DNA from: a phage | DNA: 46,671 bases | Assembly: GCA_030877765.1 (NCBI GenBank) | Contig: GCA_030877765.1_4853.1 | Reading direction: 5' to 3' (one strand) | Shown: piece after piece, positions 3,804-37,279 of the stretch | Layout of the letters: each line of letters opens with the position of its first letter | How positions within the stretch are numbered: position 1 is the stretch's first letter | Notes under the pieces: model-generated | Told to the model about the DNA's origin: nothing | The model's database searches: none | Seen by the model: only the letters and a program-made list of their open reading frames with translations | Made by a program: the position numbers and the translations under genes

Positions 3804-4426
3804 TCTCCGTGGTTACAGAATTCTTTATGCATCTTTTCTCTGAATTTCATCACAGACAACCTCGCTCTCTCAATATCATTGAATAACCCAAGATGGTATC
3901 TTTTCCCGTTAACATCACAGTAAGCATGCCACTTTTTAACCTGTTTTTGCCAATACACACCTTTAACTCCTGATGTGTTATTTTTTGGTTTTTTAGCGTT
4001 ATACTGGTTCTGCATATTTGTTGCGATTCTTAAGTTGCAAATCCTGTTATCGTCACGCACACCGTTAATGTGATCAATTTGACCTTCAGGCCAGAAACCA
4101 TAATAAATCAACCATACCAAGCGATGCGCGTAGTATCTTTTATTATTTATGCTTATCTCTATGTATCCGTTATGTTTTTTCCTGCCAGCGACACTACCCT
4201 TTCTTACACCTCCACCCGTCTTATTTCTAATGAAAACCCCTGTTTCATGGTTGTAATTTAAGCTATCCAAAACAACATAACGTGGTATTCTTTTTCTTCT
4301 TCCTATGGTGTTTGACTCTGCACTTCCCTGAGCAAAATCTTGCTTTTGCAGTTCCGATAAACTCATTTCCACAAACCTCGCACTTCTTAACGGTGATAGC
4401 CATTTCTTACCCTCTATTGTAATCAT
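3800..4426 (-). CDS. HNH-AP2 homing endonuclease (paralog 1 of 4)
   Basis: AHRLVWLIYYGFWPEGQIDHINGVRDDNRICNLR (HNH) followed by NTSGVKGVYWQKQVKKWHAYCDVNGKRYHLGLF (AP2). Confidence 0.85.
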   Translation of the reverse strand: MITIEGKKWLSPLRSARFVEMSLSELQKQDFAQGSAESNTIGRRKRIPRYVVLDSLNYNHETGVFIRNKTGGGVRKGSVAGRKKHNGYIEISINNKRYYAHRLVWLIYYGFWPEGQIDHINGVRDDNRICNLRIATNMQNQYNAKKPKNNTSGVKGVYWQKQVKKWHAYCDVNGKRYHLGLFNDIERARLSVMKFREKMHKEFCNHGE

Positions 4427-10730: not shown

Positions 10731-11040
10731 CTCACGTGGGTAGCGTGGGGAAGCCGTGGGGAACATCACCTTCCCCACGAAGTTTCACTCTAAGTATATG
10801 TAATATAATATAATTATTATTATTTGGGTTAATGGGTAATATTATTATTCATATTATAGATAGTAATTAACATAATATTAACAAATGGATTATTTGAATA
10901 TATTTATAAGGGGATGGGTATGAAATCTTCCCCTTTTTACCCACGAAAAATAAAAACATTAAAATCAATTATTTACGATGAAAAACGTGGGGCAACTGAC
11001 CTTCCCCACGGCTTCCCCACGGGTAAAAATTTACCCCACG
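10731..11040. repeat. Iteron array flanking an AT-rich core (candidate origin/operator region)
   Basis: About nine copies of (T)YCCCCACG(G) or its complement CGTGGGG in both orientations at 10732-10779, 10939-10946 and 10986-11040, either side of a ~140-bp AT-rich stretch (10795-10935). Confidence 0.7.
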
Positions 11041-11063: not shown

Positions 11064-11092
11064 TTGACGTAGAATCACAACTGATGTAGATT
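11064..11092 (+). promoter_or_regulatory. Rightward early promoter
   Basis: TTGACG (11064-11069), 17-bp spacer, TAGATT (11087-11092); GAGGG RBS and ATG at 11123 downstream. Confidence 0.55.
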
Positions 11093-12695: not shown

Positions 12696-12849
12696 ACAGA
12701 AAGTCTGGCAACTCGCAAAGCAGCACGAATTAGACGATTTCATCGAGAAGGTTGCAAAGACATTCCCTGACGCGCTTGAAGTCGTTCATGTGCAGACGCG
12801 AAATGAAAATGCATGGTGCTACACAAAAAATCATACAAATGGTAGATGA
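12682..12849 (+). CDS. Hypothetical small protein (55 aa)
   Basis: ATG at 12682 within track ORF 12616-12849. Confidence 0.3.
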   Translation: MQTTKQKVWQLAKQHELDDFIEKVAKTFPDALEVVHVQTRNENAWCYTKNHTNGR

Positions 12850-13276
12850 AATGAAGCTAACAAAAAAACAACGCGAAGAGCTACGCATGAAGTTCGGTGG
12901 TCGCTGTGCTTATTGTGGGTGTGAGCTACCCGAGAAAGGTTGGCATGCAGACCATGTTGAACCAGTGCTACGTAAATCTGAGCAGTGCATGAAGGCAGCG
13001 GCGAAAGGGATTTTCAAGCTGAAGGCAACCGGTGAGCTATATCGACCAGAAGCAGAGCGACTGGAAAACCTTTACCCTGCGTGCGCCCCCTGCAATCTGA
13101 TGAAAACTTCCTATTCCCTGGAAATGTTCAGGAAGCAGGTATCTCTTCAGGTTGCTCGTGGGCGCAAAAGCAGCATGAATTTCCGCACTGCAGAGCGTTT
13201 CGGTCTTATCGCCGTGGTGGAGAAACCAGTTGTTTTCTGGTTTGAGAAATACCAGGAAGAGAACGAAAAAAAATAA
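12839..13276 (+). CDS. HNH endonuclease (terminase-associated type)
   Basis: CAYCGCEL...HADHVEPV...ENLYPACAPCNLMK: Cys4-type HNH motif, positioned just upstream of the terminase genes. Confidence 0.8.
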   Translation: MVDEMKLTKKQREELRMKFGGRCAYCGCELPEKGWHADHVEPVLRKSEQCMKAAAKGIFKLKATGELYRPEAERLENLYPACAPCNLMKTSYSLEMFRKQVSLQVARGRKSSMNFRTAERFGLIAVVEKPVVFWFEKYQEENEKK

Positions 13277-14019: not shown

Positions 14020-14532
14020 ATGCGACCCTTAAAAGAAGAAAAACTCACGCAAGACAGGCTGAAAGAGTTGCTGCATTATAACCATGATACTGGTATTTTC
14101 ACATGGGTTCAGCGCGCCTCAAAAAGCGTAAGAGTTGGTAATTCAGCTGGCAGTAAGAATAAGTCAGGCTATATAGATATACGCATCGATAAGTCTTTAC
14201 ACAAAGCTCATCGGCTTGCGTGGCTTTACATTTATGGTGTGTGGCCCAATGGGAAAATAGATCACATCAATAACGTGAAGACAGATAACAGAATCTGCAA
14301 CCTGAGAGAAGCAAGCAATAATGAAAACGGATGGAATGCTGGTAAACCATCGACAAATACGTCAGGAGTAAAAGGTGTGAGTTGGGATGCAGAGAAAAAT
14401 AAATGGAAGGCGCATTGCAGGGTTTTTGGGAAAAAATATACAGTAGGTAGGTTTTCATCAAAAGAATATGCTGAGAGAGCCGTGGCGGAGTTCAGAGAGA
14501 AACATCACGGGGAGTTTTTTAATCATGGCTAG
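14020..14532 (+). CDS. HNH-AP2 homing endonuclease (paralog 2 of 4), between terS and terL
   Basis: AHRLAWLYIYGVWPNGKIDHINNVKTDNRICNLR followed by NTSGVKGVSWDAEKNKWKAHCRVFGKKYTVGRF. Confidence 0.85.
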   Translation: MRPLKEEKLTQDRLKELLHYNHDTGIFTWVQRASKSVRVGNSAGSKNKSGYIDIRIDKSLHKAHRLAWLYIYGVWPNGKIDHINNVKTDNRICNLREASNNENGWNAGKPSTNTSGVKGVSWDAEKNKWKAHCRVFGKKYTVGRFSSKEYAERAVAEFREKHHGEFFNHG

Positions 14533-18634: not shown

Positions 18635-19565
18635 CGCAAGGCTACCCCAACCGCGCATATCGCAGAGCCTGACAGACCCGCTGGGTGCTGCGACTCGCCT
18701 GTCGAAGATGGATAAGGTGATAACGCGCAAATACAAACAATTCAGGACTCGTGCTCTTGAGTTGTTTCGCACTATTCCGAACGGTCAGGCTAATGCAGAA
18801 TCAAGCGGTCTGTATTTCTACGATTTCAGCAGTGCACGGGCTGCCACTTTCATGGATGAGTTACAGGCGCTGATTGACGAGATTCTTCTTGAAGGTGATG
18901 ATTTCGGTCACGGCAGGATGTGGGCCAATGTGTTCATTGGTGATGCGTATCAGGCCGGAACACAAAAGGCTAACTCAGAACTGTCAAGCCTGTCTCCGGT
19001 TTACGCTGAGCAGAGGCCGATTGCCGCGATACTCTACAGTGAGCCTTACCTGAATCGGCTCCAACTGGCTTATACGCAAGGTTACTCAGACTGGCGCGGA
19101 TTGAGTGATTACTCCCGCCAGCAACTGGCATCTGTCATTATGGAAGGCATTGCCCGTGGCGCTAATCCTCGCGATGTTGAAGCTGACATTGTTAAACGTG
19201 TTGATGTATCTCACAGCTACGCGAAACAGTTGGCGCAGACTGAAATAACCGGAACGCTACGTCAGGCTAACAGGCGGGAGGTCATTGAGGCGCGCGAAGA
19301 GTTAGGCATTGAGACGGTGATGCTGTGGCAATCGGCGTTGATGCGCACAACCCGCCAGACGCACGCAGCGCGACACGGACGGTTTTATACACCAGAAGAG
19401 ATTGACACGTTTTATAGCGAGAATGGCAATAAATATAATTGTCACTGTGCACAAACACCAGCATTGCTAATGGATGGGAAACCAGTCATTCTTGAATCCT
19501 CGCAGGAAAGGCTTGATAAACAGCGTGAAGCATGGCAATCAGTCAACAAAAAGCCCTCTAAGTGA
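18615..19565 (+). CDS. Head morphogenesis protein (SPP1 gp7-like minor head protein)
   Basis: Follows the portal; in-frame ATG at 18615 overlaps the portal stop; assigned by position and size. Confidence 0.6.
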
Positions 19566-19580
19566 GGGCTTGGTTTTGTC
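19553..19580. terminator. Bidirectional terminator
   Basis: Stem gccctc/gagggc with 5-nt loop, then TTGGTTTTG. Confidence 0.7.
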
Positions 19581-19648
19581 TTGTGAGCATACACAGAACA
19601 AATATTATTATCGCATAGCACAATATCTCTACGATGCTGAATATTGTT

Positions 19649-20293
19649 TTAATCATCCAGTTTCACGCCTGGAATTTTTCCTGCTGCAATGGCTTCATAA
19701 ATTAGCTTGGCCTCGTCCTCGCGCCTGTAATCTTGAGCTGCCATTTCTAACACCGCGCAGATAGACTCAAGTACAGCCTCATGCTTCTTTTCTGCTTCTG
19801 TGCGTAGTGGTTTTAGGCTTTCCGGTACGAAGCAGCATGACCGACCAGCACCACCTTCATCCCAATAGCAAACAGCCACATCGTTTCCGTCCGTTGTTGT
19901 CTTGTGCGCTACAACTTCCATTTCAGTGCCAGCATCAGGAATCCAGTCATTGCAGTATCCTAACTTTGGATTAAAGAAGAATTCTACTTTTGCACCAACT
20001 GGCGGCAGGCCTTCTCCATTCCATGTCTGCTTTTGCAATGCTGCTAGCGCGGATTCATACAAGTCGCGAGTTATCATACAATAATCCGTGGCTACGCTGA
20101 CATAGCGACCGGGTATGGGGATTGCCACGGTGTACTGAAATGGCACATCAAAACCATCGCTATATCCCTTTGGGAAACAAAAAGCAATTGTGATACTGTC
20201 ACCATTGAAATCACCAACTCGACACCTCTCAGCACCATCAGGCCACCCACCACGCTTAGGTAATTCTTGAACTAACAGGTCGATAAGTTTCAT
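19649..20293 (-). CDS. Hypothetical protein (214 aa), last gene of leftward cassette A
   Basis: Long ORF on the opposite strand to the structural genes, coupled to the upstream paralog-A gene. Confidence 0.55.
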   Translation of the reverse strand: MKLIDLLVQELPKRGGWPDGAERCRVGDFNGDSITIAFCFPKGYSDGFDVPFQYTVAIPIPGRYVSVATDYCMITRDLYESALAALQKQTWNGEGLPPVGAKVEFFFNPKLGYCNDWIPDAGTEMEVVAHKTTTDGNDVAVCYWDEGGAGRSCCFVPESLKPLRTEAEKKHEAVLESICAVLEMAAQDYRREDEAKLIYEAIAAGKIPGVKLDD

Positions 20294-20592
20294 TTTGTTT
20301 CTCCCAATGCTTTATTAACCGCGGCACGTGCATTATCCAGAGCGCGACGCTTGCTTGATGTTGTCCAGCATTTTCCGGAGTGGTCGTCGTAGATTTCCAG
20401 AAGTTGCTGGAGTGCTGATAACAGGTCAGGAGATGCCGCTATTAGCCTTGCGTTATGCCATTGCTCGGTTTTATCACCGTTATATGTTGGAGTGAATGCA
20501 ACCTCGACACCAATATCCGAGATAACATCTGGCGCGTTATCATCACCAACAACAACTTCCCATTTTCCATGCGTACCTTTAAATTCTTTCAC
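20290..20592 (-). CDS. KEFKGT-motif protein, paralog A (likely GTG start at 20592)
   Basis: Shares MKEFKGT-G-W N-terminus, AA-P-LL-ALQ and NKALG C-terminal motifs with the 33777-34118 product; GAGGT RBS. Confidence 0.55.
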   Translation of the reverse strand: MKEFKGTHGKWEVVVGDDNAPDVISDIGVEVAFTPTYNGDKTEQWHNARLIAASPDLLSALQQLLEIYDDHSGKCWTTSSKRRALDNARAAVNKALGETK

Positions 20593-20600
20593 ATCCAACC

Positions 20601-20744
20601 TCACTTAATATACTCAACAATCTCAACTTCACGCATCTGCACCAGGCCAAATGGTGCAACCACCTTACCGCACGGACGGATTTTGATTTGCTCAAGGTTG
20701 AACACTCCGCAGCGTCCGTTTTCTTTGAATTTGACCATTACCAT
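20601..20744 (-). CDS. Small protein (47 aa)
   Basis: ATG start; stop overlaps the downstream GTG; below track cutoff. Confidence 0.3.
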   Translation of the reverse strand: MVMVKFKENGRCGVFNLEQIKIRPCGKVVAPFGLVQMREVEIVEYIK

Positions 20745-20746
20745 AA

Positions 20747-20899
20747 TTAATACCCGTTTTTCTTGGCTAATTGTTGCGCACGTTTCTTCGTGTACCCACA
20801 GGCCATCAGGCGCTTGACCTCGTTGCGGCGCCTTGCGAAATGGTACTCACGAGAATTAAATGCACATTCGTTGCTAAAGTTAACATTACGTGGATTCAT
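20747..20899 (-). CDS. Small basic protein (50 aa)
   Basis: GAGGTG RBS 6 nt upstream; Arg/Lys-rich; first ORF after the leftward promoter. Confidence 0.3.
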   Translation of the reverse strand: MNPRNVNFSNECAFNSREYHFARRRNEVKRLMACGYTKKRAQQLAKKNGY

Positions 20900-20931
20900 C
20901 TTCATCACCTCATTCATCACTTGATATAGAT

Positions 20932-20977
20932 ACTATGCACCACCAACCAATCTACGTCAACACCATTGTGATAGAAT
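20932..20977. promoter_or_regulatory. Divergent promoter pair
   Basis: Minus strand TTGACG, 17 bp, CATAGT; plus strand extended -10 TGaTAGAAT. The core CACCACCAACCAATCTACGTCAACA recurs at 34160-34190. Confidence 0.55.
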
Positions 20978-21972: not shown

Positions 21973-22444
21973 ATACTGGCGACCGCTGGCAATTATTATA
22001 ATTGTTGCCGCTGGCGCGTTGTGGGTGGCAAATAAAGTGTCCGGTTATGGCGAGCAACAATATGCCGCCGGATACGCGAAGGCAGTCGCAGAACAGAAGG
22101 CCGCAGACGAACAAGAGGAGCAACGACGCAATGCAGAACTGCAAAAGATTCAGGCCGACGCACAGCAAAGGATTGATGCTGCGCGCAATGATGCTGTTAA
22201 TGCTGCCGCTAAGTCTGGCAGGTTGCAGCAACAACTCACCAGTATCCGCAAGCAGCTCGTCGGATATTCCACCGCTGAGTCCATTGGCAACCCAGCCGCA
22301 GAAACCGGAGTTTTGCTTGCAGACGTGCTCCGCAAATCTGTCGAAAGAAATCAACAGCTGGCAGATTACGCTGACAGGGCGAGAGAGGCAGGATTGACGT
22401 GTGAGGCACAGTATAATTCTCTGCGTAATAAAAAAGCCCCGTGA
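21953..22444 (+). CDS. Rz: Rz-like i-spanin
   Basis: N-terminal TM (LAIIIIVAAGALWV) followed by Gln/Ala-rich coiled coil. Confidence 0.8.
   Translation: MMSILVKYWRPLAIIIIVAAGALWVANKVSGYGEQQYAAGYAKAVAEQKAADEQEEQRRNAELQKIQADAQQRIDAARNDAVNAAAKSGRLQQQLTSIRKQLVGYSTAESIGNPAAETGVLLADVLRKSVERNQQLADYADRAREAGLTCEAQYNSLRNKKAP
22176..22397 (+). CDS. Rz1: Rz1-like o-spanin lipoprotein, embedded in +1 frame within Rz
   Basis: MLRAMMLLMLPLSLAGCSNN: signal peptide with LAGC lipobox; Pro-rich mature region. Confidence 0.7.
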   Translation: MLRAMMLLMLPLSLAGCSNNSPVSASSSSDIPPLSPLATQPQKPEFCLQTCSANLSKEINSWQITLTGRERQD

Positions 22445-23121: not shown

Positions 23122-23423
23122 TATTTAATCTCTCCGTTCAGTTCATTAACAATTAACGTTGCATAGCCAGCAATATCTTTCCAGCTGTCATCATAAGTCG
23201 GGTCGCCATTCAGAATGCGCCCAATCTTGTGCTGAATCATGTCGAGCGCCTCGCGTTGACTTGGTGTGAGATTGCGCCAGCCATCTACCTTGCGCATCAC
23301 ATCTTTCAACTCCTGCATAATTTCAGCGCCGTCTTTGAATTTACCGTATCGACTACCGCGTTCGGTGATGAGTCGCTCTGTTGCGTCAGTATGGCGCTTA
23401 TCGCCCGTGATTTGTGAACTCAT
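23121..23423 (-). CDS. Hypothetical protein (100 aa)
   Basis: Operon-coupled ORF. Confidence 0.45.
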   Translation of the reverse strand: MSSQITGDKRHTDATERLITERGSRYGKFKDGAEIMQELKDVMRKVDGWRNLTPSQREALDMIQHKIGRILNGDPTYDDSWKDIAGYATLIVNELNGEIK

Positions 23424-23910
23424 TGTGATGCATTCTCCTGAATTCTTTTATTTTTGCTTCTGCTTCTCTTATGTCGGAAAAGTAACCAACTGTGAATCTT
23501 TTGCCATTTACTCCAACTCTTGCATGCCACTTGTTGTGCGATGAACTCCAGTTAACCCCCTTGATACCGCTAGTGTTGTTTTTGTTCATTGCTTTGTTGT
23601 GGCTATTCTCAAATTTGCTGGCCTCCCTTAAATTGCACGCCCTGTTGTCATTGCGAATGCCATTAATGTGGTCAATCATTTCACTTGCTGGCGCGCCATG
23701 AATGCATATCCATGCCAATCTGTGAGCAAGAAAAGCCCTACCGCAAAGAATTATTTGCACATATCCATCTGGCTTTAAGTAGCCAGCCACACTCCCTTTT
23801 TCTGCAATCCTATTCCTTGTCTTTAGCCATTTAAATTCCCCAGTTAGTGGATTGTAGTAAAGGTAACTCAATATAAACTCCCTACTCGGCTCATCTCTCC
23901 TATGCCTCAT
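23398..23910 (-). CDS. HNH-AP2 homing endonuclease (paralog 3 of 4)
   Basis: AHRLAWICIHGAPASEMIDHINGIRNDNRACNLR followed by NTSGIKGVNWSSSHNKWHARVGVNGKRFTVGYF. Confidence 0.85.
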   Translation of the reverse strand: MRHRRDEPSREFILSYLYYNPLTGEFKWLKTRNRIAEKGSVAGYLKPDGYVQIILCGRAFLAHRLAWICIHGAPASEMIDHINGIRNDNRACNLREASKFENSHNKAMNKNNTSGIKGVNWSSSHNKWHARVGVNGKRFTVGYFSDIREAEAKIKEFRRMHHNEFTNHGR

Positions 23911-24470: not shown

Positions 24471-24665
24471 ATGGCGCATGACGAACTGTACGAAGAATCG
24501 TTAATCCAGAGGTTGAATGAAGTTGAGCGCACTCGCGAATGGCTGGAGTGCGAGTTACGAGAAGTGCGCAACCGCCTGCAACGCAAGCGCAGTCAGCAAA
24601 GAGATGTCATCGACTGGTCTGGGGGTACACCTAAATTTAACAATCTGGGAGAATGGTTGAAATGA
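24471..24665 (+). CDS. Hypothetical protein (64 aa)
   Basis: Track ORF in operon orientation. Confidence 0.4.
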   Translation: MAHDELYEESLIQRLNEVERTREWLECELREVRNRLQRKRSQQRDVIDWSGGTPKFNNLGEWLK

Positions 24666-25192
24666 GCAACATTAGTAAGGAAAGCATTTTAAAGTTCCTC
24701 CAGCATGATGAAAATACAGGAAACTTTCTATGGATTGATAATTTCTCAAGAAAATCAAAGAAAGGGAAGGTGGCTGGAGGTATTACATCGCATGGGTATT
24801 GGAGAATTCAACTCCCCATCGGGAGGTTTTACGCACACAGAATGGCGTGGATTGTTTGCAATGGAGATATACCAAACGGATATGAGATTGATCACATAAA
24901 TGGGAACAAGAAAGATAATCGCATCAGCAACCTAAGATTGGTCACAAGAGGTCAAAATGTTATGAATGTAGGCGTGAAAAACAATAATACAAGCGGAGTT
25001 AAGGATGTTGTTTGGGACTCTTCGCGAGAAAGGTGGAGGGTTCAAATTACAGCCAATGGCAAGCATTATTATGGAGGTAGATTCTCGTCAATAACACAAG
25101 CAAAAGAGGAGAGGAACAGGCTCATAAAGATGGTTCACGGGAAATTTTTGAATACAAAAGGTGAGCAATATGACACTACTAATGAACGATGA
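24653..25192 (+). CDS. HNH-AP2 homing endonuclease (paralog 4 of 4)
   Basis: AHRMAWIVCNGDIPNGYEIDHINGNKKDNRISNLR followed by NTSGVKDVVWDSSRERWRVQITANGKHYYGGRF. Confidence 0.85.
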   Translation: MVEMSNISKESILKFLQHDENTGNFLWIDNFSRKSKKGKVAGGITSHGYWRIQLPIGRFYAHRMAWIVCNGDIPNGYEIDHINGNKKDNRISNLRLVTRGQNVMNVGVKNNNTSGVKDVVWDSSRERWRVQITANGKHYYGGRFSSITQAKEERNRLIKMVHGKFLNTKGEQYDTTNER

Positions 25193-25406
25193 GAAATTAC
25201 TTGAATGCCCGTTTTGTGGTTGTGATGACGTAAGTGTTATTGATGACGGCGAATGGTTGCACGTTGAGTGCGGAGATTGTTTTTGCCGCACTGACTCGTA
25301 TTGCTGCGCATCCACGGCAATGAAGAAATGGAACACAAGAGGTGGACACCTCTACACTTCCGACGACTTCAATCAGGCAGCAGAGGAGCGTGATTATGGA
25401 CTATAA
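25170..25406 (+). CDS. Lar-like restriction alleviation zinc-ribbon protein
   Basis: LLECPFCG...HVECGDCFC...AMKKWNTRG matches the Lar family CxxC..CxxC..WNTR pattern. Confidence 0.55.
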   Translation: MTLLMNDEKLLECPFCGCDDVSVIDDGEWLHVECGDCFCRTDSYCCASTAMKKWNTRGGHLYTSDDFNQAAEERDYGL

Positions 25407-25884
25407 ATCACAAATCATGCGCGTGATTATGAATCACCCCGGAGCAACGCGCGCATACATTGAGAAGCATTGCGGAGGTAAGCATTCAAGCACCACAACG
25501 CATCGCTTACATGAGATGCTTGCTCTTGGATTCATTCGTCGCGAGAAGTCAGTGATTCGCGGCGGCAAGTGGCAGTATAAATATTTCATCTCTGATGATG
25601 CAGCCGGTATTGATGATGCTATTAAGTGCCATTTGCTTGATAACGCTGGCGCGGAAGTGAAAGAAATCAGTACCACCAATGGCATTGATTATCGCATCGT
25701 GAAAAGCCGCATCCGCATTATGTTTCATAACGGTGATGTGACGCGAAGCTATGACCACCACAAGAAGCTGTGGCGTTATTCATGGAAGGAGAAGGAAGTC
25801 AATGTAAGCAATCTATTTAATTCACTTCTTCGCAGCGTAAGGGGTCAGCATGGGAAAAGCCAAACGCAAGAAGCAAGAGTATGA
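25396..25884 (+). CDS. Hypothetical protein with N-terminal winged-helix-like region
   Basis: IMRVIMNHPGATRAYIEKHCG...HRLHEMLALGFIRRE resembles a MarR-type wHTH. Confidence 0.45.
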   Translation: MDYKSQIMRVIMNHPGATRAYIEKHCGGKHSSTTTHRLHEMLALGFIRREKSVIRGGKWQYKYFISDDAAGIDDAIKCHLLDNAGAEVKEISTTNGIDYRIVKSRIRIMFHNGDVTRSYDHHKKLWRYSWKEKEVNVSNLFNSLLRSVRGQHGKSQTQEARV

Positions 25885-29102: not shown

Positions 29103-30176
29103 ATGGAAAAGATTATTTTTACCAAAGACTTGGTAGCCAACTCCGCAGTGGTGGCTGACCAGTGGAAACATCTCACCATCGACCGCAAGGTGTTCTGCAA
29201 TGCAGAAGCTGAACTGGCGAAAACATACGGTGTTAACGCCACCGCGCTGGTAACGAAAGATTACTGGCGCGACGTGGATAACGTCACCACCCGTGTTTTC
29301 CGCAACGAAGCTGGCCAGGACATGATGGCTGACCTGATGGGTATCGCGGCAAACATTAACATTGGTAAGACTGTGGCAATCAGCCGCATTGCTTCCGATG
29401 CTGGCAAGGTAGTCCGCACTCTGTCTGGTCAGGAGCCGGAAGACTTGGATAAAACTCGCTACGATTACACTGGCGACGTGATTCCAATCTTCAAAACTGG
29501 CTACAGCCGCGAATGGCGCGAACTGCTGGGTATGCAGTCTGAAGGTTTTGACCCCCTGCTGGACGATCAGGCTAACGTCACCTTTAACCTACGTTCCGAC
29601 ATGGCGCAGTATCTGCTGACCGGCGACCAGACTCTGAACGTGAACGGCGTTTACACTGGCTACGGTATCACCAACCACCCGAACACCATTCAGGTCAACC
29701 TGAACATTCACGATGGCGGCCTGAATATCGACCTGCAAACCGCAACGCCAGATGAAATCGTGAAATTCTTCAATCAGGATTTCCAGGCTATTCTGGATGC
29801 GCAGAACGTATTTGAGCAGGTGACTCTGTGGGTTTCCCCGGCAGTGCGTCGCAGTTTCATGCGTCCGTATTCTAATGCGGCTGGCTTCAAAGGCGGCACG
29901 GTTGAGCAGTACATCACGCAGTTCGGTAATGGTCGCATTGGTAAGATTGGCACCAACTTCCTGCTGACTGGCAACCATTTCGTTGGTTACGTTCGCAATG
30001 ACATGTACATCCGTCCGCGTGTTGCTCAGCCTGTCTCCACCTATGCGGCAGCTCGCACCAACCCGCACGATAACTTTAACTTCCTCGTATGGTCTGCTTT
30101 CGGTCTGCAGATTCGCAAGGATGCCGCTGGAAAAAGCCGCGTCTTTAATGGCTATGGTAGCCAGGAAGCTAAATAA
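29103..30176 (+). CDS. Major capsid protein
   Basis: 357 aa, strong RBS, followed by a strong terminator; lambda E-like position and size. Confidence 0.65.
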   Translation: MEKIIFTKDLVANSAVVADQWKHLTIDRKVFCNAEAELAKTYGVNATALVTKDYWRDVDNVTTRVFRNEAGQDMMADLMGIAANINIGKTVAISRIASDAGKVVRTLSGQEPEDLDKTRYDYTGDVIPIFKTGYSREWRELLGMQSEGFDPLLDDQANVTFNLRSDMAQYLLTGDQTLNVNGVYTGYGITNHPNTIQVNLNIHDGGLNIDLQTATPDEIVKFFNQDFQAILDAQNVFEQVTLWVSPAVRRSFMRPYSNAAGFKGGTVEQYITQFGNGRIGKIGTNFLLTGNHFVGYVRNDMYIRPRVAQPVSTYAAARTNPHDNFNFLVWSAFGLQIRKDAAGKSRVFNGYGSQEAK

Positions 30177-30179
30177 TAA

Positions 30180-30205
30180 AAAAGGGGGTTTATCCCCCTT
30201 CTTTG
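30180..30205. terminator. Bidirectional terminator
   Basis: Stem aggggg/ccccct with T-runs on both strands; on the minus strand it overlaps the last codons of 30190-30996. Confidence 0.75.
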
Positions 30206-30996
30206 TATCTAATTTCACCGTAAACCATGTACTGTAACATGTAACAAAACTCCCATTCCGTCATATCTGTCCGTAGCCACTTCCTGTTCTTCTTGTAATT
30301 GTACTCCGCCAGCTCCGCTTTTAAATTGTGAAGAGCATTAACCAGTTCTGGATATACGAGGTTATTCTTAACAAACCAGTTGACAGATAAAATATGGTCA
30401 ATATGCCAATTATTGCGGTCATCAAAACTCATCCATGGAAGCATGGTTGATTTTATATGCTTAATGAAATCATCCTTTGAGTACCCGAGAACATCATCTA
30501 CTGTTCTATCAAGCGCAATGTCAGATACTCTCATATCAAGCCGCTCAAGCATTTTTCTTAGGAACACGTGGTGTGGGTGCTTCTTTTGCCATTGCCTGAC
30601 ATTATCCAGAGCCTTTTTATTGCCTTTCTCTGAGTAGTACCATCTGCGATAAGCTTCCCTTTTCTTTTGTAAAAACTCCTCCTTTTTCTCTGGATTCTCG
30701 TTAAGCCTTTGCATCTTCCTTTTGTTGTACTCCTGTTGTGATTGTTTTCTTTTCTTTTTGTACTCGCTGTTATCCTTGTTTTTCTGCCACTCCTTTTTTC
30801 TGTACTCACTTTCCTTGCGTTTGCGCTCCTCTGTTGTTCTCTGCTTCCTTGTTCTTTCGTATACGCAATGCTTGCATCCGCCTGATGCTGTAAAAAACAC
30901 AGTTCCACCACATACAGAGCATGGAATCCATTCACACACAAATTGCTTCAGTCCAGCAACCCTTGCTTCTTGCGCGGCTTCTTTTCTTGTTTTCAT
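30190..30996 (-). CDS. Zinc-ribbon, Lys/Glu-rich protein with C-terminal HNH-like motif
   Basis: N-terminal CEWIPCSVCGG...CKHC; long KRKE-rich middle; C-terminal NNWHIDHILSVNWF. Confidence 0.5.
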   Translation of the reverse strand: MKTRKEAAQEARVAGLKQFVCEWIPCSVCGGTVFFTASGGCKHCVYERTRKQRTTEERKRKESEYRKKEWQKNKDNSEYKKKRKQSQQEYNKRKMQRLNENPEKKEEFLQKKREAYRRWYYSEKGNKKALDNVRQWQKKHPHHVFLRKMLERLDMRVSDIALDRTVDDVLGYSKDDFIKHIKSTMLPWMSFDDRNNWHIDHILSVNWFVKNNLVYPELVNALHNLKAELAEYNYKKNRKWLRTDMTEWEFCYMLQYMVYGEIRYKEGG

Positions 30997-31082
30997 AAAG
31001 TCACTCCTAATTTGGTTTTATATTACCACGAGTGTAACTAGTGTGCTACAATTAACCAGCATTAACTCATGAGGATATTTAA

Positions 31083-31280
31083 ATGGCTAAATACGAAGTG
31101 ATTGCGCGAGGCATCTTTGTCAAAGAAAAAGGCAAGATTCGTGAGTTGCAGCTTGGCGAGGTGATTACCGAACCTGCTGATCATCTGATGTCAAAGCTGC
31201 GCGTTATGCCAGAACTGGAAAAATCTTTCGAAGTCGCAACCCCGCAAGAAAAGACGACAAAGAAAAAGAAAGCAGAGTAA
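31083..31280 (+). CDS. Hypothetical protein (65 aa)
   Basis: Track ORF followed by a terminator. Confidence 0.45.
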   Translation: MAKYEVIARGIFVKEKGKIRELQLGEVITEPADHLMSKLRVMPELEKSFEVATPQEKTTKKKKAE

Positions 31281-31284
31281 ACTG

Positions 31285-31310
31285 AACCCGCATAATGCGG
31301 GTTTTTTATT
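31285..31310 (+). terminator. Rho-independent terminator
   Basis: Stem cccgc/gcggg, 5-nt loop, TTTTTTATT. Confidence 0.75.
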
Positions 31311-31320
31311 GGGGGTTTCT

Positions 31321-32139
31321 ATGGCTGTCAGGTACGAAATAAACACAACTCCGGCTGACGGAGAGGTTTTGCTTAGCGAAACCATGTCTGCGGACTGGTC
31401 AGCATTACAGGTGCAGATTGTGCCGCTAAATTCTTCCGGTGGCTATGTGCCATTAACAAGCGGGTCTGTTTACGTAATGGTATCGCCGTTTGCGTCTGGT
31501 GATTTCTGGATTGACGTCAACAATAATAATTATTATGGCGTAGCGCTGCGGCTGAAGGTGATCAAGTCCCAAATACCTGCTGGCATTGCATCTCTGAAAG
31601 TCCTTGTATGGCGAGCAGCTACATCAGTGCCATCAAGTCAGGTTGTGGCACAGTCCTATGCAGAGTTTGCTAACAAGCAAGGGAAGTTATTCACTGCGTC
31701 GCGCAGAGTAACTGATGTCGCTGGCAGCTCAAACCTTGACAGCATATTTATCACCGGAACAAAGCAGGTGATATTCAACCAGCGCATTATTGGTTACACG
31801 GGGAAAGGTGTTGTTGCATCAATCTATCGCGGCGCAGTTGCCACTGGCGGTACGACGGCAGAGATTAACAACCCAAACGACATAACGCCACAAGCAGCTA
31901 CGGCGCAGTTAATTACTGGCGCTACCGTGACAAACATCGGGCAGCTGACGGTGGCGGCAACATACAGTGAGGGTAACGCATCGAATCAGGGGCAGGGTAA
32001 CTCGCAGGCGAAGCTCGGCGAGCAGATTATCATGGCACCGAATACGACGTACTTACTTCGCATAACATCACTAGATACTGCGGCGCAGAATATCAATGCG
32101 TACGTTTCATGGTTTGAGGATGATACTTATCTGGCGTGA
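31321..32139 (+). CDS. Hypothetical (probably virion-associated) Thr/Ala/Gly-rich protein
   Basis: 273 aa from MAVRYEIN; flanked by terminators on both sides. Confidence 0.5.
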   Translation: MAVRYEINTTPADGEVLLSETMSADWSALQVQIVPLNSSGGYVPLTSGSVYVMVSPFASGDFWIDVNNNNYYGVALRLKVIKSQIPAGIASLKVLVWRAATSVPSSQVVAQSYAEFANKQGKLFTASRRVTDVAGSSNLDSIFITGTKQVIFNQRIIGYTGKGVVASIYRGAVATGGTTAEINNPNDITPQAATAQLITGATVTNIGQLTVAATYSEGNASNQGQGNSQAKLGEQIIMAPNTTYLLRITSLDTAAQNINAYVSWFEDDTYLA

Positions 32140-32145
32140 TAAAAG

Positions 32146-32170
32146 AAAAGCCCCGCAAGGGGCTTTTTAT
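32146..32170. terminator. Bidirectional terminator
   Basis: Stem agcccc/ggggct with gcaa loop; T-runs on both strands. Confidence 0.8.
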
Positions 32171-32172
32171 TG

Positions 32173-32709
32173 CTACAGACGCATAGGCATAACAACAATC
32201 TTCGCAGTCTCTCCAGATGGCGCACTAAGACAGCAAACAGCGGCATCTGTGTTTCCATTTAGTTCAAATTTAACGCAACAGAATCTTGGGTTAAACAGCT
32301 TTGCCACCTTCTCGATATCAACAAGGTAGCCAGCATTGAAGCCAATTTTCTCTGCAGGCAAGGTCTGATTCGGAATGACGCGATCAATATCAGGGAATCG
32401 ACCATCAATCTCTTCGCAGATACCTGCTCCAACCATCGCGCCGGCTTCATCATGATACGTTGCAATTTTCGACTTTGTATCAATGATGGCGTGCTCATAA
32501 CGCTTTGTTGGTGACTTGCCAATCTTGATGATTACATTTTCTGTCAGCTTATTGTCATGGTTGCCACCAATAAATGCGCGATGACCGTCAGTTGAGGCAA
32601 TGCGACCATCTTGCATAAAGCAAATACCATTCAGGTAGTAGCGCACATCATTGCGAGCCTGAAAGATTAATGCTGATTCAAGTAATAATTTGCTGATTTT
32701 TAGTTTCAT
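32173..32709 (-). CDS. Truncated DnaN-like sliding clamp (beta-clamp) fragment
   Basis: Blocks shared with E. coli DnaN as recalled: DVRYYLNG, TDGHR, DGRFPD, IGFN..Y.LD, C-terminal VVMPMRL. At 178 aa it is about half of a full clamp. Confidence 0.7.
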   Translation of the reverse strand: MKLKISKLLLESALIFQARNDVRYYLNGICFMQDGRIASTDGHRAFIGGNHDNKLTENVIIKIGKSPTKRYEHAIIDTKSKIATYHDEAGAMVGAGICEEIDGRFPDIDRVIPNQTLPAEKIGFNAGYLVDIEKVAKLFNPRFCCVKFELNGNTDAAVCCLSAPSGETAKIVVMPMRL

Positions 32710-32882
32710 CACTTCACCTTAATCATGTGTTGTTTTGCAACCTTCAGGCATTCTTCAAAAATGCCACCATTCTTTGCGCTCTGATTGCGCTTGTAATACT
32801 GAATTGCCGCATCAATTGCCATCTGGTCGATTTCAGGCAGTTTTGCGCGCAGCTGTTTTTCGATGAATTGTTCGGCGTTCAT
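32709..32882 (-). CDS. Small protein (57 aa)
   Basis: ATG 32882; stop overlaps the clamp-fragment start (TGATG); below track cutoff. Confidence 0.3.
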   Translation of the reverse strand: MNAEQFIEKQLRAKLPEIDQMAIDAAIQYYKRNQSAKNGGIFEECLKVAKQHMIKVK

Positions 32883-32967
32883 TTTTCAACCTATTTGCAG
32901 TATGGGCACGTTGATTTCGTTCCGCTACCACCATGTCGTGGGCAACATATTTTCTCTATTGGTGTCA

Positions 32968-33777
32968 TCACATCTTCTCCAGAATTGCCATAACCTCGTG
33001 AATGTCAGCAACAGGAATCTGAATAAATTCCTCATCCTCTGCCACCACATGACCAGCAGGGAGAATTACATGGTCAGCTGGCTTCAGTAACTCAATCAGG
33101 CGGTCTACTGGCTTAATCTTTTTCGACTTCAGCACTTTGGCTGTGACCTTATCCTTGCCTTGCGCCTTCGCTTCTTCGACCGCTTCGTCGATAACTTTTA
33201 CCGCATCATCTCCATGTTCGCGCGTTACCGCTACGGCATTTGCATAGCTGATCTGTCCGGCACTGATTCGCGCTTTTACTTCCGCAGGCACATCACCCAA
33301 CGACAGGTGCATTTGCACGTCAGATACTGAGCGGCCTACCTTCTTGGCGATTTCCTCGTTTGTCCAGCCAAAACCTTTCAGACGCGTGTAAGCCTTTGCG
33401 CGTTCAAACGGGTCAAGTTGCTTGCCCTGACTTGATGACACCATGAATGCGATTTTGTCAGCCTCGTCGCCAGTAAAATCCTTACACTCAATGCGAACGA
33501 TTGGTGCGCCGCGCTCAATGGCTCGCAATGCGCCGAGGTAGCGATGCTGCCCATCAAGAATGCGGATACCTTTATCGTCAGGAATAACTGTTAATGCTGG
33601 CAATGGCTGACCTGACTCCCAGCACTGCGCGAAATATTCCACATGCTGCTCATCTGCTTCACGGATGTTGTATCCCGGCTCCAGATAGATTTGCTCTACT
33701 GGCACGAGGTAGGTTTTGTTAACAGCGATACCGTTACGCGTTTCTTTGTCTGAATAGATTTTGCTTAGTGTTTTCAT
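32968..33777 (-). CDS. ParB N-terminal domain (ParB/Srx-like) nuclease-type protein
   Basis: ILDGQHRYLGALRA motif; central HTH-like segment (EEIAKKVGRSVSDVQ). Confidence 0.7.
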   Translation of the reverse strand: MKTLSKIYSDKETRNGIAVNKTYLVPVEQIYLEPGYNIREADEQHVEYFAQCWESGQPLPALTVIPDDKGIRILDGQHRYLGALRAIERGAPIVRIECKDFTGDEADKIAFMVSSSQGKQLDPFERAKAYTRLKGFGWTNEEIAKKVGRSVSDVQMHLSLGDVPAEVKARISAGQISYANAVAVTREHGDDAVKVIDEAVEEAKAQGKDKVTAKVLKSKKIKPVDRLIELLKPADHVILPAGHVVAEDEEFIQIPVADIHEVMAILEKM

Positions 33778-34118
33778 TATTTCTTTCCTAATGCTTTATT
33801 GATAGATTCTTCAGCTAACAGCAATTCATCTGGGTATTGTTCATTCCAGTTTTGTTTGTATGCCTTGCTAAGCATTTTTTGCAGAGCTTCAAGCAACTCA
33901 GGTGCTGCTGCCATTAAATTAAAGTCATGCTCAACACTGCTATCAATCTCCCAATGCATCCCGTTGTATTTAGCACCCTTGCTAGAGAAGGCAATATTTC
34001 TGTCATCGTCGTGGTGACAGCCAGGTGTGTCATCAGTTCGACAAGACGGGTAAATAGCTGCGCAACCCCCGCGAATGTCTGCGACCCACGGCCCGGGCGT
34101 ACCTTTAAATTCTTTCAT
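33777..34118 (-). CDS. KEFKGT-motif protein, paralog B
   Basis: MKEFKGTPGPW...AAAPELLEALQ...INKALGKK; the RBS-start context GAGGTGATGAAAATGAAAGAATTTAAAGGTACG is shared with paralog A. Confidence 0.6.
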   Translation of the reverse strand: MKEFKGTPGPWVADIRGGCAAIYPSCRTDDTPGCHHDDDRNIAFSSKGAKYNGMHWEIDSSVEHDFNLMAAAPELLEALQKMLSKAYKQNWNEQYPDELLLAEESINKALGKK

Positions 34119-34159
34119 TTTCATCACCTCTAATATTTATTGTTGTTTCTACGTCACTA

Positions 34160-34205
34160 ACTATAAACGCACCACCAATCTACGTCAACAGGAATATGCT
34201 AAAAT
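34160..34205. promoter_or_regulatory. Divergent promoter pair (duplicate of 20932-20977)
   Basis: Minus strand TTGACG, 17 bp, TATAGT; plus strand extended -10 TGcTAAAAT. Confidence 0.6.
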
Positions 34206-34235
34206 CATGCTAATCAAACAACAGGAGATTTAAAC

Positions 34236-36222: not shown

Positions 36223-36596
36223 TGAATATGCTTGAACTGGTTGATGCATATCTTCAGGATGCAGGATTGTACGATGGCTGGACTTCGCAGCTGCAGTTCT
36301 GGAATGACACCGGAGATGGAAGTGAGCAATTTATTGTTCTGCAATCCAACGGTGGCACTCAGGTTATGGATGGCCTCGGCGGTGACTTCTATTTTTCGCT
36401 GTATGTTGTTGGCAAACAAGGCCAATACAATGTTGCTGATGTTGATTCGAAGGCCAATGAGATTATCGAATACATCAAAACACACCCGATTGATTCATGC
36501 GTTAACTACATCCAGTTGCAAGCGCCACTTGGCAGGGCAATGCTGACGGAAGAAAAAAGACCAGTGCATGAACTGCTATTACGTGTTGTGAAATAA
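36222..36596 (+). CDS. Putative tail terminator protein
   Basis: 124 aa; immediately before the major tail region. Confidence 0.45.
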   Translation: MNMLELVDAYLQDAGLYDGWTSQLQFWNDTGDGSEQFIVLQSNGGTQVMDGLGGDFYFSLYVVGKQGQYNVADVDSKANEIIEYIKTHPIDSCVNYIQLQAPLGRAMLTEEKRPVHELLLRVVK

Positions 36597-36597
36597 A

Positions 36598-36624
36598 TAA
36601 AGCCGCATGAAGCGGCTTTTAATT
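36598..36624. terminator. Bidirectional terminator
   Basis: Stem agccgc/gcggct with 5-nt loop; T-runs on both strands. Confidence 0.75.
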
Positions 36625-36701
36625 TGGTGGACACGGACGGATTTGAACCTTCAATCAGCCGATTATTAGTCGGTTGCTTTAACCAATTAAGCTACGCGTC
36701 C
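36625..36701 (-). tRNA. tRNA-like gene (77 nt including encoded CCA); apparent anticodon AAU
   Basis: Minus strand folds by eye: 7-bp acceptor stem with one G-U, D-arm GCTT/AAGC, anticodon stem-loop with loop CTAATAA, T-loop GGTTCAAATCC, discriminator A plus CCA. One mismatch each in anticodon and T stems. Confidence 0.55.
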
Positions 36702-37199: not shown

Positions 37200-37243
37200 A
37201 ATCTACACCACAAAATAATCGCTGTCAACACCTGTGATATAAT
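37200..37243. promoter_or_regulatory. Divergent promoter pair: leftward into the non-coding locus, rightward for the major tail gene
   Basis: Minus strand TTGACA (37228-37223), 17 bp, TAGATT (37205-37200); plus strand extended -10 TGaTATAAT (37235-37243). Confidence 0.6.
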
Positions 37244-37279
37244 CACCACGTTAGCAGCTAACACAATTCGGAGATCGAA

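Follow-up and report, generated by a model that had tools for sequence, protein, structure and literature searches.

A leftward operon in a lytic siphophage encodes a putative ring-less clamp-pocket protein and a ParB-like DNA-binding protein

The window, the whole 46,671-nt stretch of DNA that was analyzed, comes from a lytic enterobacterial siphophage of the Skatevirus-like group and contains a cassette that faces backward within the head/tail module. It forms an autonomous operon that is read leftward, between a promoter and a terminator of its own. The transcription unit (34188-32146, minus strand) is made up of a sigma-70-type promoter, four genes and a bidirectional hairpin terminator. 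From promoter to terminator, the order is an EFKGT-family gene, a ParB/KorB-type gene, an empty slot termed slot B, a gene for a 57-aa protein and a gene for a clamp-related protein, here called the mini-clamp (Table 1). The preliminary description of this DNA had placed four minus-strand genes between a promoter and a bidirectional terminator here. All four ORFs lie where it put them, each matches a PHROG family, and the leftward operon is genuine. A second unit with a like design lies at 20960-19551.

Table 1. Features of the leftward operon and its surroundings in the window
Feature	Position	Strand	Remarks
Rightward extended -10 TGCTAAAAT	34190-34205	+	Member of a 46-nt repeat family; invariant in related loci
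Leftward sigma-70-type promoter	34160-34188	-	-35 TTGACG 34188-34183, 17-nt spacer, -10 TATAGT 34165-34160
9-mer TCTACGTCA pair	34148-34156, 34179-34187		31 bp apart
EFKGT-family gene	33777-34127	-	116 aa; phrog_1273 at 9e-19
ParB-like gene	32968-33777	-	269 aa; phrog_1033 at 3e-91
Slot B	32883-32967		85-nt gap, empty in the window
57-aa gene	32709-32882	-	phrog_4439 at 2e-21
Mini-clamp gene	32173-32712	-	178/179 aa; phrog_3007 at 4e-61
Bidirectional intrinsic terminator	32146-32167		Stem AAAAGCCCC/GGGGCTTTT, 9 bp, loop 4, T-runs on both strands
HNH/EndoVII-like gene	30190-30996	-	Between major capsid gene and terminator
Major capsid gene	29103-30176		Left flank

Translational coupling, which had been ascribed to all four genes, holds at two of the three junctions, TAATG at 33777 (EFKGT/ParB-like) and GTGATG at 32712-32707 (57-aa/mini-clamp). 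At the third, an untranslated gap of 85 nt on the ORF map parts the ParB-like gene from the 57-aa gene. Judging from homologues that open with MKMNEFKGT, the true start of the EFKGT gene is likely ATG 34124, and homologues opening with MKLK make ATG 32709 the likely start of the mini-clamp gene. The description of the flanking genes as capsid genes does not hold directly on the left side, where the HNH/EndoVII-like gene, a 65-aa ORF and a 276-aa ORF intervene between the major capsid gene and the terminator.

Like a moron, the cassette has its own promoter and terminator and an independent orientation. On the other hand, its base composition does not deviate (GC of 0.44-0.47, same as the remaining genome), and sporadic presence is limited to genes in two slots. 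The conserved core consists of the ParB-like gene, the 57-aa gene and the mini-clamp gene, which are found in 55 of 55 Skatevirus-like loci (54 of 55 for the 57-aa gene).

The promoter scores 10/12 against the consensus, the highest of only four promoter-like sites found by a consensus scan of 7.5 kb. Promoter-like sites as a class are not enriched (4 vs 11 expected in shuffles); support for this one comes from its conservation. In 35 related loci and five loci of a more distant clade, the two hexamers persist around a 17-nt spacer of variable sequence, independently of which gene comes next in these 40 loci. Transcription is predicted to start near 34153. The authors of the phage ASO78B record independently annotated the same promoter and terminators, and equivalent terminators are annotated in the Skate record too. 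The terminator, with an RNA fold of -14.1 kcal/mol (z = -3.15), closes both the leftward operon and the rightward 276-aa gene. Sister hairpins occur at 22428, 36595 and 37998.

Two copies of the 9-mer TCTACGTCA lie at the leftward promoter, one overlapping the -35 element and the other covering roughly +1 to +10 of the leftward RNA. This non-palindromic, promoter-associated motif occurs in the window seven times exactly and 19 times with at most one mismatch, compared with 6.7 ± 2.4 in shuffles. Both copies are conserved in most related loci, and the pair is a candidate operator pair. The 46-nt repeat family represented by the rightward element has other copies at 20932-20977 and 37200-37245, and each copy ends with TGnTAnAAT. 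With its leftward and rightward elements, 34128-34235 would be a divergent promoter region.

The second gene of the operon had been described as a ParB-like nuclease. Its nearest relatives are chromosomal ParB, Noc and KorB proteins with a ParB helix-turn-helix (HTH), and no nuclease domain, HNH or other, was found in it with Pfam, PHROG or NCBIfam. Nothing in these results speaks for nuclease activity, and we rejected the nuclease reading. The protein matches Pfam HTH_ParB (PF17762) at 2.5e-11 (44 bits vs the cut-off of 22.6) and KorB (PF08535) at 7e-6 (26.3 vs 22.3 bits), and the HTH spans residues 120-202. Among PDB sequences, Spo0J (1vz0) aligns to residues 40-202 at 4e-13, ahead of structures of ParB, Noc and KorB. 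In the N-terminal region, Spo0J/ParB alignments span residues 25-120, where PF02195 has no match at E <= 0.01 and a DGQHR domain matches weakly (E of 0.004). The C-terminal 65 aa have no domain assignment.

The nucleotide-binding motifs are altered. Box II is GQHR (GQHRYLGA) instead of the canonical GERR (GERRxRA), and box III is SSSQG instead of ENLQR. As the last arginine of box II is kept, the protein may still bind some nucleotide. The score against TIGR00180 is 39.4, below the cut-off of 58.45. Judging from these matches, this is an orphan DNA-binding protein of the ParB/KorB type whose CTPase motifs are degenerate. It shares the HTH, and perhaps the ParB/Srx-like N-terminus, with ParB, Noc and KorB, and, as with KorB and Noc, no ParA accompanies it. 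On the other hand, its GQHR and SSSQG boxes, its TIGR00180 score and its origin in a lytic phage set it apart from them.

The ParB/Spo0J homology including the HTH could also mean that the protein partitions phage DNA in a carrier or pseudolysogenic state, like P1 ParB or N15 SopB, while the other genes are unrelated cargo. The repeated short motifs could then be centromere-like sites. However, the repeated motif is non-palindromic and located in promoters, boxes II and III are degenerate, and the score is below the NCBIfam cut-off. Besides, the scanned window proteins, covering part of the ORFs, include no match to a ParA-like protein, an integrase or a CI-type repressor, and relatives are called lytic in the titles of papers. 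No repeated palindrome of the parS type stood out among the listed repeats, nor was an OB-like site identified among them. This explanation is extremely unlikely, and we rejected it on the lack of a ParA match, the sub-threshold score and the degenerate boxes.

Rather, the ParB-like protein may be a sequence-specific DNA-binding regulator or an organizer of phage DNA whose nucleotide-switch motifs have been altered. Its targets may be the repeated TCTACGTCA sites, including the two in its own promoter. This link is positional, and a MarR-type regulator encoded at 25342-25884 or the preferences of host RNA polymerase could explain the motif equally well. Co-variation of ParB and TCTACGTCA is uninformative because the motif is unchanged in a more distant clade whose ParB is about 82% identical.

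While the core is constant, two positions of the operon hold variable genes. The promoter-proximal slot A, occupied in the window by the EFKGT gene, contains different genes across relatives, and in 12 related loci it contains phrog_14587, an 'anti-restriction protein' by its PHROG name, which has no Pfam support. The EFKGT protein has a constant N-terminus (KEFKGTxGPW) and C-terminus (AAAPELLEAL...NKALG) with a hypervariable middle, and it has no match in Pfam, NCBIfam, PADLOC or PDB sequences. A paralogue of its gene is found at 20290-20604. Slot B in relatives contains C5 or N6/N4 methyltransferases, a methyltransferase-EndoVII fusion, HNH genes or small Zn-ribbon genes. In the comparison of 55 loci, using the families PF00145, PF01555 and PF02945, methyltransferases (C5, N6/N4 or EndoVII fusion) occupy slot B in roughly one-third. 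Slots A and B are thus hot spots for methyltransferase and anti-restriction-like genes.

These genes raise the alternative that the operon is mainly an anti-restriction and DNA-modification island, in which the ParB-like protein would load on phage DNA and serve DNA-modifying enzymes as a cofactor or as their targeting subunit, the flanking genes would counter defence, and the mini-clamp is maybe a decoy that protects against host factors or toxins aimed at the clamp pocket. In its favor, a C5 methyltransferase gene lies directly upstream of a distant mini-clamp gene, ParB-fold/methyltransferase fusions are enriched in phages (PMC12704722), and a thymine dioxygenase is activated by a phage ParB (PMC13229309). 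Such cofactors of DNA modification likewise have an orphan ParB fold beside modifying enzymes, as in relatives of the phage whose methyltransferase gene comes directly after ParB. They either have no DNA-binding domain or form a fusion with the enzyme (PMC13229309, PMC12704722), whereas the window protein has an HTH, is encoded by a separate gene and is conserved without a modifying enzyme at its locus. The ParB-like protein is 81-100% identical across the clade, and it is 99-100% identical in genomes lacking the methyltransferase, the window and seszw, and is kept in genome reduction. In addition, none of the cassette proteins matches PADLOC. The island is an unlikely explanation on balance. 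The anti-defence role once suggested for the cassette finds its methyltransferases and phrog_14587 in relatives only; none of the four cassette proteins has a match to known anti-restriction or anti-defence proteins or to DNA-modifying enzymes. Rfam has no match within the cassette either.

The terminator-proximal gene had been taken as a clamp fragment or clamp mimic, and this can be sharpened. The mini-clamp has homology to two segments of the E. coli beta clamp, 136-254 and 316-366. The alignment indicates that it is built of beta residues ~128-250 (domain II) joined to ~315-366 (the C-terminal half of domain III), ending in VVMPMRL, identical to E. coli beta. Domain I and residues ~251-314 of domain III, the dimer-interface region, are missing, and the second, ring-lining helix of domain II is shortened or missing. 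What is kept is the clamp fold of beta-alpha-beta-beta-beta repeats, homologous to DnaN, at about half the length of the three complete domains (~366 aa). Both halves of the dimer interface, domain I and the 272/273 region, lie in the deleted segments, so the canonical ring as a dimer is impossible; the beta variant I272A/L273A is monomeric (PMC11139829). The mini-clamp is 31% identical to the host clamp and scores below the cut-offs of NCBIfam dnaN (TIGR00663; 34.8 vs 137.65 bits) and Pfam DNA_pol3_beta_2 (16.7 vs 27 bits). The bacterial beta clamp (DnaN) is an acidic ring, whereas the mini-clamp is basic and would form no such ring. The family is mildly basic, with a median pI of 8.2 compared with 5.25 for E. 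coli beta, which would also fit direct DNA binding.

The clamp-binding-motif (CBM) pocket was defined by 18 residues in subsites I and II (PMC11139829). The window protein shares 16 of these 18 residues with E. coli beta, as opposed to 36 of 146 (25%) elsewhere. Over 134 family representatives, pocket positions are 72% identical to E. coli beta, compared with 21% for the remaining positions. The pocket is the best-conserved part of cellular beta clamps too, and part of this enrichment may reflect detectability of homology. Conservation inside the mini-clamp family is not subject to this effect: of the 12 positions conserved at 90% or more, nine are pocket residues (Fisher p = 5e-8), and the C-terminal motif MPxR[LI] is kept across the family. 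With a diverse alignment, AF2 predicts a compact mini-clamp fold with confidence; from a shallow alignment of 35 sequences (70-92% identical) the prediction reached pLDDT of 48 and was discarded. Taken with this model, the alignments suggest that the CBM pocket is selectively conserved, nearly residue for residue.

The mini-clamp family includes at least 177 clusters at 50% identity, with lengths of 165-220 aa (about 180) and the same boundaries, and occurs in lytic and temperate phages. In BFVD, similar proteins of 180-200 aa are found in phages of Pantoea, Serratia and Burkholderia, among others. A very diverse family alignment has no conserved stretch of 7-10 residues, and a profile search with it mostly retrieved the same close relatives again. 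A lambdoid mini-clamp gene has no match in complete E. coli genomes.

In temperate phages, the gene comes directly after cI/cro/cII and before Rep_O/DnaB, lambda P, a DnaC-like gene, or a helicase and a primase. In other phages the mini-clamp family is thus a replication-module gene at the module head. Two unrelated phage groups (loci L060 and L063) have the order ParB, mini-clamp, SF2 helicase. In a Marinobacterium prophage, the mini-clamp gene adjoins the C5 methyltransferase mentioned above, with RdgC and SSB a few genes off. None of the four cassette products matches a virion-protein family of Pfam or PHROG. The earlier view that the cassette does not serve virion assembly agrees with this and with the replication-module contexts.

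The 57-aa protein is basic (pI of 9.2), and its gene is always directly upstream of the mini-clamp gene, overlapping its start. A homologue of 67 aa (blastp E of 3e-7) precedes a distant mini-clamp gene in locus L093 with the same overlap. The 57-aa protein is probably a partner of the mini-clamp.

Deletion of the cassette had been proposed as a check of its function, and published genome-reduced mutants of phage seszw, made by CRISPR deletions (PMC9825161), supply part of it. In their GenBank records, seszw genes 16 (mini-clamp) and 17 (small) are absent from 180S, 200S, 230S, 260L, 280S, 300L and 300S, and the 57-aa gene is deleted in seszw_160L and later mutants. Clones without the mini-clamp and small genes are viable on Salmonella, large-plaque clones included. 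The mini-clamp/57-aa pair is therefore an accessory function, dispensable on the laboratory host, and any replication role of the mini-clamp would be auxiliary or host-dependent. On the other hand, ParB (gene 18) is present in all seven of these clones. Since it was kept through every inspected round of genome reduction, the ParB-like protein appears important for growth, although its retention could partly reflect the design of the CRISPR deletion library. At 99% identity or more, the capsid gene is found in 72 records, ParB in 70 and the mini-clamp in 47.

Dispensability in the laboratory and loose annotation could suggest that a host dnaN was once captured and that the mini-clamp is what is left of it, without function and carried as a passive passenger; many genome records name it 'DNA polymerase III beta subunit', while RefSeq has 'RusA-like Holliday junction resolvase'. 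Its identity to the host clamp is too low for a recent capture. The many clusters of like length with the same boundaries, the strong conservation of one functional surface, the compact predicted fold and the conserved partner gene effectively refute this reading, to which we give next to no weight.

Another alternative, also unlikely, is that the mini-clamp itself acts as a processivity or tethering factor, which binds DNA by a basic face and holds a polymerase in its pocket, or which oligomerizes. Four protomers of 1.5 domains would make up the six domains of a clamp ring, and herpesvirus UL42/UL44 are a precedent for polymerase tethering without a loader. The herpesvirus proteins UL42, UL44 and BMRF1 are non-ring proteins of two full domains with documented DNA binding, acting with a virus-encoded polymerase, and by analogy the mini-clamp would resemble them in possible mode of action only. 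Standing against this alternative, domain I, the I272/L273 interface region and one ring-lining helix are missing, the pI shift is modest, and growth does not require the gene.

The bacterial sliding clamp is a hub for replication, repair and initiation control, and its pocket is an antibiotic target. Retention of the pocket suggests that the phage may use the mini-clamp to capture host replication proteins. We propose that the mini-clamp is a soluble, ring-less CBM receptor. Its candidate clients would be the usual docking partners of the host clamp, among them Pol III alpha/epsilon/delta, Hda, MutS/MutL and Pol II/IV/V. The purpose would be either to bring host replication and repair proteins to phage DNA or to keep them off the host clamp, with the 57-aa protein as a possible partner or regulator. 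This is the likely purpose because the phage encodes two helicases, a primase, SSB and recombination proteins, whereas no DNA polymerase was found in the window. Sequestering Pol III alpha would hurt a phage dependent on the host polymerase too. A regex scan of 85 ORFs for phage-encoded CBMs gave five matches, a chance level, none of them convincing. QMHLSL in the ParB-like protein was rejected as a CBM, being inside an HTH helix.

ParB-family proteins can close around DNA and slide as nucleotide-gated clamps. Conceivably, the ParB-like protein and the mini-clamp could form a substitute sliding clamp that needs no loader, in which the mini-clamp supplies the CBM pocket. With the 57-aa protein perhaps as a bridge, such an assembly would move along phage DNA together with host Pol III or repair enzymes, bypassing the host clamp and its loader. 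This idea, which we regard as very unlikely, is compatible with the gene order in L060 and L063 and with the conserved pairing found in all Skatevirus-like loci.

Overall, the best explanation is that the cassette is an autonomous operon encoding a ring-less mini-clamp that would act as a CBM receptor and a ParB-like protein that would act as a DNA-binding regulator or organizer, with a probability of about 0.55. The best reading of the cassette is a DNA-metabolism accessory operon and not a virion-assembly one.

Late transcription of T4 depends on gp45. Mu MuC carries two CBMs, a case of phage exploitation of the CBM-pocket interaction from the other side (PMC12867686), and Gp168 of Twort-like phages is cited as a clamp inhibitor in a review (PMC11139829). 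These phage systems target the same hub, coupling or diverting host DNA transactions by proteins that carry the motif or bind the clamp, whereas the mini-clamp would do the reverse and supply the pocket. The survey by Kazlauskas and Venclovas in 2011 remarks on the existence only of short polIII-beta homologues in phages, five proteins (PMC3201878). By that description rather than by sequence, they are probably of the same kind as the mini-clamp. New relative to the 2011 survey are the exact boundaries, the selective pocket conservation, the partner gene, the contexts and the link to dispensability. Beyond that survey's remark, no description of a phage-supplied free clamp pocket or of a truncated or decoy phage clamp was found in the literature searched.

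The ParB-like gene is reassigned from a nuclease to an orphan ParB/KorB-type DNA-binding protein, judged by its domains. If our reading of the mini-clamp is true, it could give inhibitor screens a natural, soluble pocket module of monomer size. A widespread phage family supplying a free copy of the pocket would then represent a new intervention in host DNA metabolism.

The leftward cassette of the preliminary description is confirmed with minor corrections. Each of its four minus-strand ORFs is a real gene, lies where it was placed and matches a phage protein family. The proposed leftward promoter is the top σ70-like site in 7.5 kb and is conserved in relatives: 35 related loci and five from a more distant clade keep both hexamers but vary in the spacer, irrespective of the downstream gene. 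Because counts of promoter-like sites as a class show no enrichment, the case for the promoter rests on conservation. The bidirectional terminator also stands, as a hairpin (−14.1 kcal/mol, z = −3.15) with T-runs on both strands, and the same promoter and terminators were annotated by the authors of the ASO78B record. Translational coupling of the four genes holds at two of three junctions, which overlap (TAATG and GTGATG), but the third is an 85-nt gap. The base composition of the cassette is unremarkable.

Coordinates of the cassette and of other features in the window
Feature	Position	Strand	Remark
Cassette promoter	34188..34160	-	TTGACG-17-TATAGT
EFKGT gene	34127-33777	-	116 aa
ParB-like gene	33777-32968	-	269 aa
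57-aa gene	32882-32709	-	
Mini-clamp gene	32712-32173	-	179 aa
Cassette terminator hairpin	32146-32167	both	
Exact TCTACGTCA copies	4476, 7093, 11065, 20951, 24174, 34148, 34179		
MarR-type protein	25342-25884		
Second leftward island	19551-20960	-	between head-morphogenesis and lysis genes
Second-island promoter	20960..20932	-	TTGACG-17-CATAGT, in a copy of the cassette's bidirectional promoter block
Second-island first gene	20604-20290	-	EFKGT paralogue, phrog_1273, 4e-21
Second-island second gene	after first gene	-	214 aa, unknown function, phrog_7798
Second-island terminator	19551-19571	both	bidirectional
Capsid gene to cassette terminator	30190-32139		variable
HNH or endonuclease VII-like genes	3800-4426, 12752-13276, 14020-14532, 23398-23910, 24653-25192, 30190-30996		
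First ORF	20-1180		tailspike family
tRNA-Ile	36625-36701	-	anticodon AAT
Terminator-like hairpin	36595-36624		adjoins tRNA-Ile gene
Inverted repeat	10744-11021		36 nt, 86% complementary, 206 nt between arms
Two TGACGTAGA/TGATGTAGA sites	11065-11090		adjoin inverted repeat

The last gene of the cassette encodes a reduced sliding clamp. With phmmer against PDB sequences, the E. coli clamp β is matched at E = 5e-10: residues 8-121 of this mini-clamp align with β 136-254 (domain II), and residues 122-179 with the C-terminal half of domain III (316-366); the C-terminus, VVMPMRL, is identical to that of β. In multiple alignments, domain I and β residues ~251-314 are cleanly lost and the second helix of domain II is shortened. 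Searched exhaustively, 1.84 billion cluster representatives yielded 177 family clusters at E ≤ 1e-10, nearly all 165-220 aa long and retaining the C-terminal MPxR[LI] motif, which rules out a one-off fragment. The label ‘RusA-like Holliday junction resolvase’, carried by PHROG phrog_3007 and via it by RefSeq, is unsupported, as the protein has both the sequence and the fold of a β clamp, and it looks like a propagating misannotation. The cassette genes carry inconsistent names across dozens of GenBank records.

What the mini-clamp conserves best is the pocket in which clamp-binding motifs dock on the cellular clamp. A 2024 review (PMC11139829) defines the pocket residues as subsite I (R152, L155, T172, G174, H175, R176, L177, P242, R246, V247, V360 and M362) and subsite II (H175, N320, Y323, V344, M362, P363, M364 and R365). 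The mini-clamp in the window is identical to E. coli β at 16 of 18 pocket positions and at 36 of 146 elsewhere. The same comparison for 134 diverse members of the family gives 72% identity in the pocket and 21% outside it. Of the 12 positions conserved at ≥90% in these members, nine belong to the pocket (Fisher p = 5e-8), although cellular clamps are likewise most conserved at the pocket. The role we infer for the mini-clamp is that of a soluble clamp-binding-motif receptor. A UL42-like model, in which the mini-clamp itself binds DNA directly, is kept alive by the basic pI of the family (8.2 vs 5.25 for β), a line of reasoning that follows Kazlauskas & Venclovas (PMC3201878).

The mini-clamp occurs in several genomic contexts. 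At 55 loci of the Skatevirus clade, the order is the ParB-like gene, a variable slot, the 57-aa gene and the mini-clamp, and its place between the capsid gene and the head-tail genes is fixed. In lambdoid temperate phages, the mini-clamp comes after cI/cro/cII and is directly followed by Rep_O and DnaB, lambda P, a DnaC-like loader, or an SF2 helicase with primase. In two further groups (L060 and L063), the mini-clamp stands between a ParB-HTH gene directly upstream, with which it overlaps in L060, and an SF2 helicase gene. In a Marinobacterium prophage (L088, 4283-6579), a 568-aa C5 DNA methyltransferase gene stops 12 nt upstream of the mini-clamp, and RdgC and SSB are a few genes away. Two unrelated siphophages of 41-45 kb (L091 and L092, both 5001-5516) have a 171-aa mini-clamp as a lone opposite-strand gene in the head module, between MuF/Ig-like decoration genes and the capsid gene; the position is like that in Skatevirus, but ParB is absent, and in L092 a hairpin resembling the window's terminator lies just downstream. 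In L093, too, a 57-aa-type partner stands beside a distant mini-clamp (blastp E 3e-7), and a second, weaker one in L089 was recognised by its motif by eye alone. From these contexts, the mini-clamp is recurrently associated with replication functions in temperate phages and tends to be a small autonomous unit in lytic siphophages. Incidentally, the prophage arrangement echoes the methyltransferase, 57-aa gene, mini-clamp order of some Skatevirus relatives; DNA methylation and mini-clamps may be functionally linked, or this may be coincidence.

The genome of seszw, a Salmonella Skatevirus, has been reduced by iterative CRISPR deletion (PMC9825161), and we took the gene content of its mutants from the GenBank mutant genomes. 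Clones 160L, 180S, 200S, 230S, 260L, 280S, 300L and 300S have lost the small gene (17) and gene 20, and all but 160L also the mini-clamp (16). Thus, in these multi-deletion backgrounds, the mini-clamp and its 57-aa partner are dispensable for plaque formation on a laboratory Salmonella host. ParB (18) and the promoter-proximal gene 19 are retained in all of these clones, and none of the mutants inspected has lost ParB. At ≥99% identity, the capsid gene has 72 records, ParB 70 and the mini-clamp 47.

The ParB-like protein exceeds the Pfam thresholds for HTH_ParB and KorB domains but scores under the NCBIfam partition-protein cut-off, and the solved structures closest to it in sequence are those of Spo0J, ParB, Noc and KorB. 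Its box II is GQHR (vs GERR) and its box III SSSQG (vs ENLQR). It had been described as a nuclease, but no nuclease domain was found in it. Orphan ParB folds of this kind are described in recent surveys as common on mobile elements, where they bind various nucleotides, and as often fused to methyltransferases in phages (PMC12704722); a phage ParB that activates a DNA dioxygenase is also known (PMC13229309). Most economically, the protein would be a site-specific DNA-binding regulator or organiser of the KorB or Noc kind. Its candidate targets, by position alone, are copies of a 9-mer, TCTACGTCA, two of which fall within the promoter of its own gene. The window has seven exact copies, and 19 with at most one mismatch vs 6.7 ± 2.4 in shuffles, the majority apparently intergenic or in divergent-promoter regions. 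The reverse complement, TGACGTAGA, includes the −35-like TTGACG. TCTACGTCA could serve as an operator to which a phage regulator binds, with the ParB-like and MarR-type proteins as candidates, or be an extended promoter consensus.

In relatives, the position upstream of ParB is occupied by an EFKGT-family gene, phrog_14587 ‘anti-restriction protein’, phrog_2260 or small unknowns. The position between ParB and the 57-aa gene, empty in the window, has C5 or N6/N4 methyltransferases, a methyltransferase-EndoVII fusion, HNH genes or Zn-ribbon genes. These slot genes of relatives are the sole basis for the anti-defence role proposed earlier, which is inapplicable to the window's own four genes. The interval from the capsid gene to the cassette terminator is also variable, as an HNH/EndoVII-like gene and a 276-aa ORF (phrog_5335, unknown function) are present in some relatives only, and seszw has a 65-aa ORF alone.

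The window contains another leftward island that is built like the cassette. The EFKGT family, found in ~30 of 55 related loci and twice in the window, and noted in loci L010, L013, L023, L031, L040, L043 and L062, has constant ends, M-K/N-D/E-EFKGTxGPW ... (L)IAAAPELLEAL ... NKALG, around a hypervariable middle, at 97-123 aa. Residues 1-70 of the window's EFKGT protein are 90% identical to a seszw ORF located elsewhere in that genome. The family is therefore multi-copy and subject to modular shuffling, which suggests diversifying selection.

The window is approximately the entire genome of a Skatevirus-like siphophage of enterobacteria (46.7 kb), and the cassette region has ~91% nucleotide identity to Escherichia phages Bas78 and Bas80, Salmonella phages Skate and seszw, and others. 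The first ORF matches a tailspike family only over the C-terminal 386 residues of the family (profile positions 247-632), so that the window appears to start inside the tailspike gene, consistent with a genome that is circularly permuted or was opened at an arbitrary point. The load of homing-endonuclease-like genes is unusually heavy and differs between relatives; four of the six HNH or endonuclease VII-like genes, scattered across the genome, are phrog_99. The single tRNA gene called lies within the tail-gene region on the opposite strand, where ASO78B has tRNA-Arg and tRNA-Ser. The inverted repeat, made of CGTGGGGAAG-type units, could be a replication origin or an early regulatory region.

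The gene map has primase, terminase, portal, head, lysis and tail genes rightward, SSB, Sak4-like, exonuclease VIII-like and two helicase genes in a leftward block, a tailspike gene and several HNH endonuclease genes; no DNA polymerase gene was found in it. Since the phage relies on host Pol III, the likeliest clients of a soluble receptor would be host replisome or repair proteins. The mini-clamp would recruit them into phage replication complexes or, alternatively, withhold them from the host clamp; titration of Hda, for example, would upset initiation control, which over-produced MuC perturbs from the opposite side of the interaction (PMC12867686). It may instead act as a decoy against clamp-targeting host factors. 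Short phage homologues of polIII-β were already recorded in 2011 (PMC3201878), and our literature search found no paper on the pocket-only architecture, its conservation pattern, a partner gene or a function.
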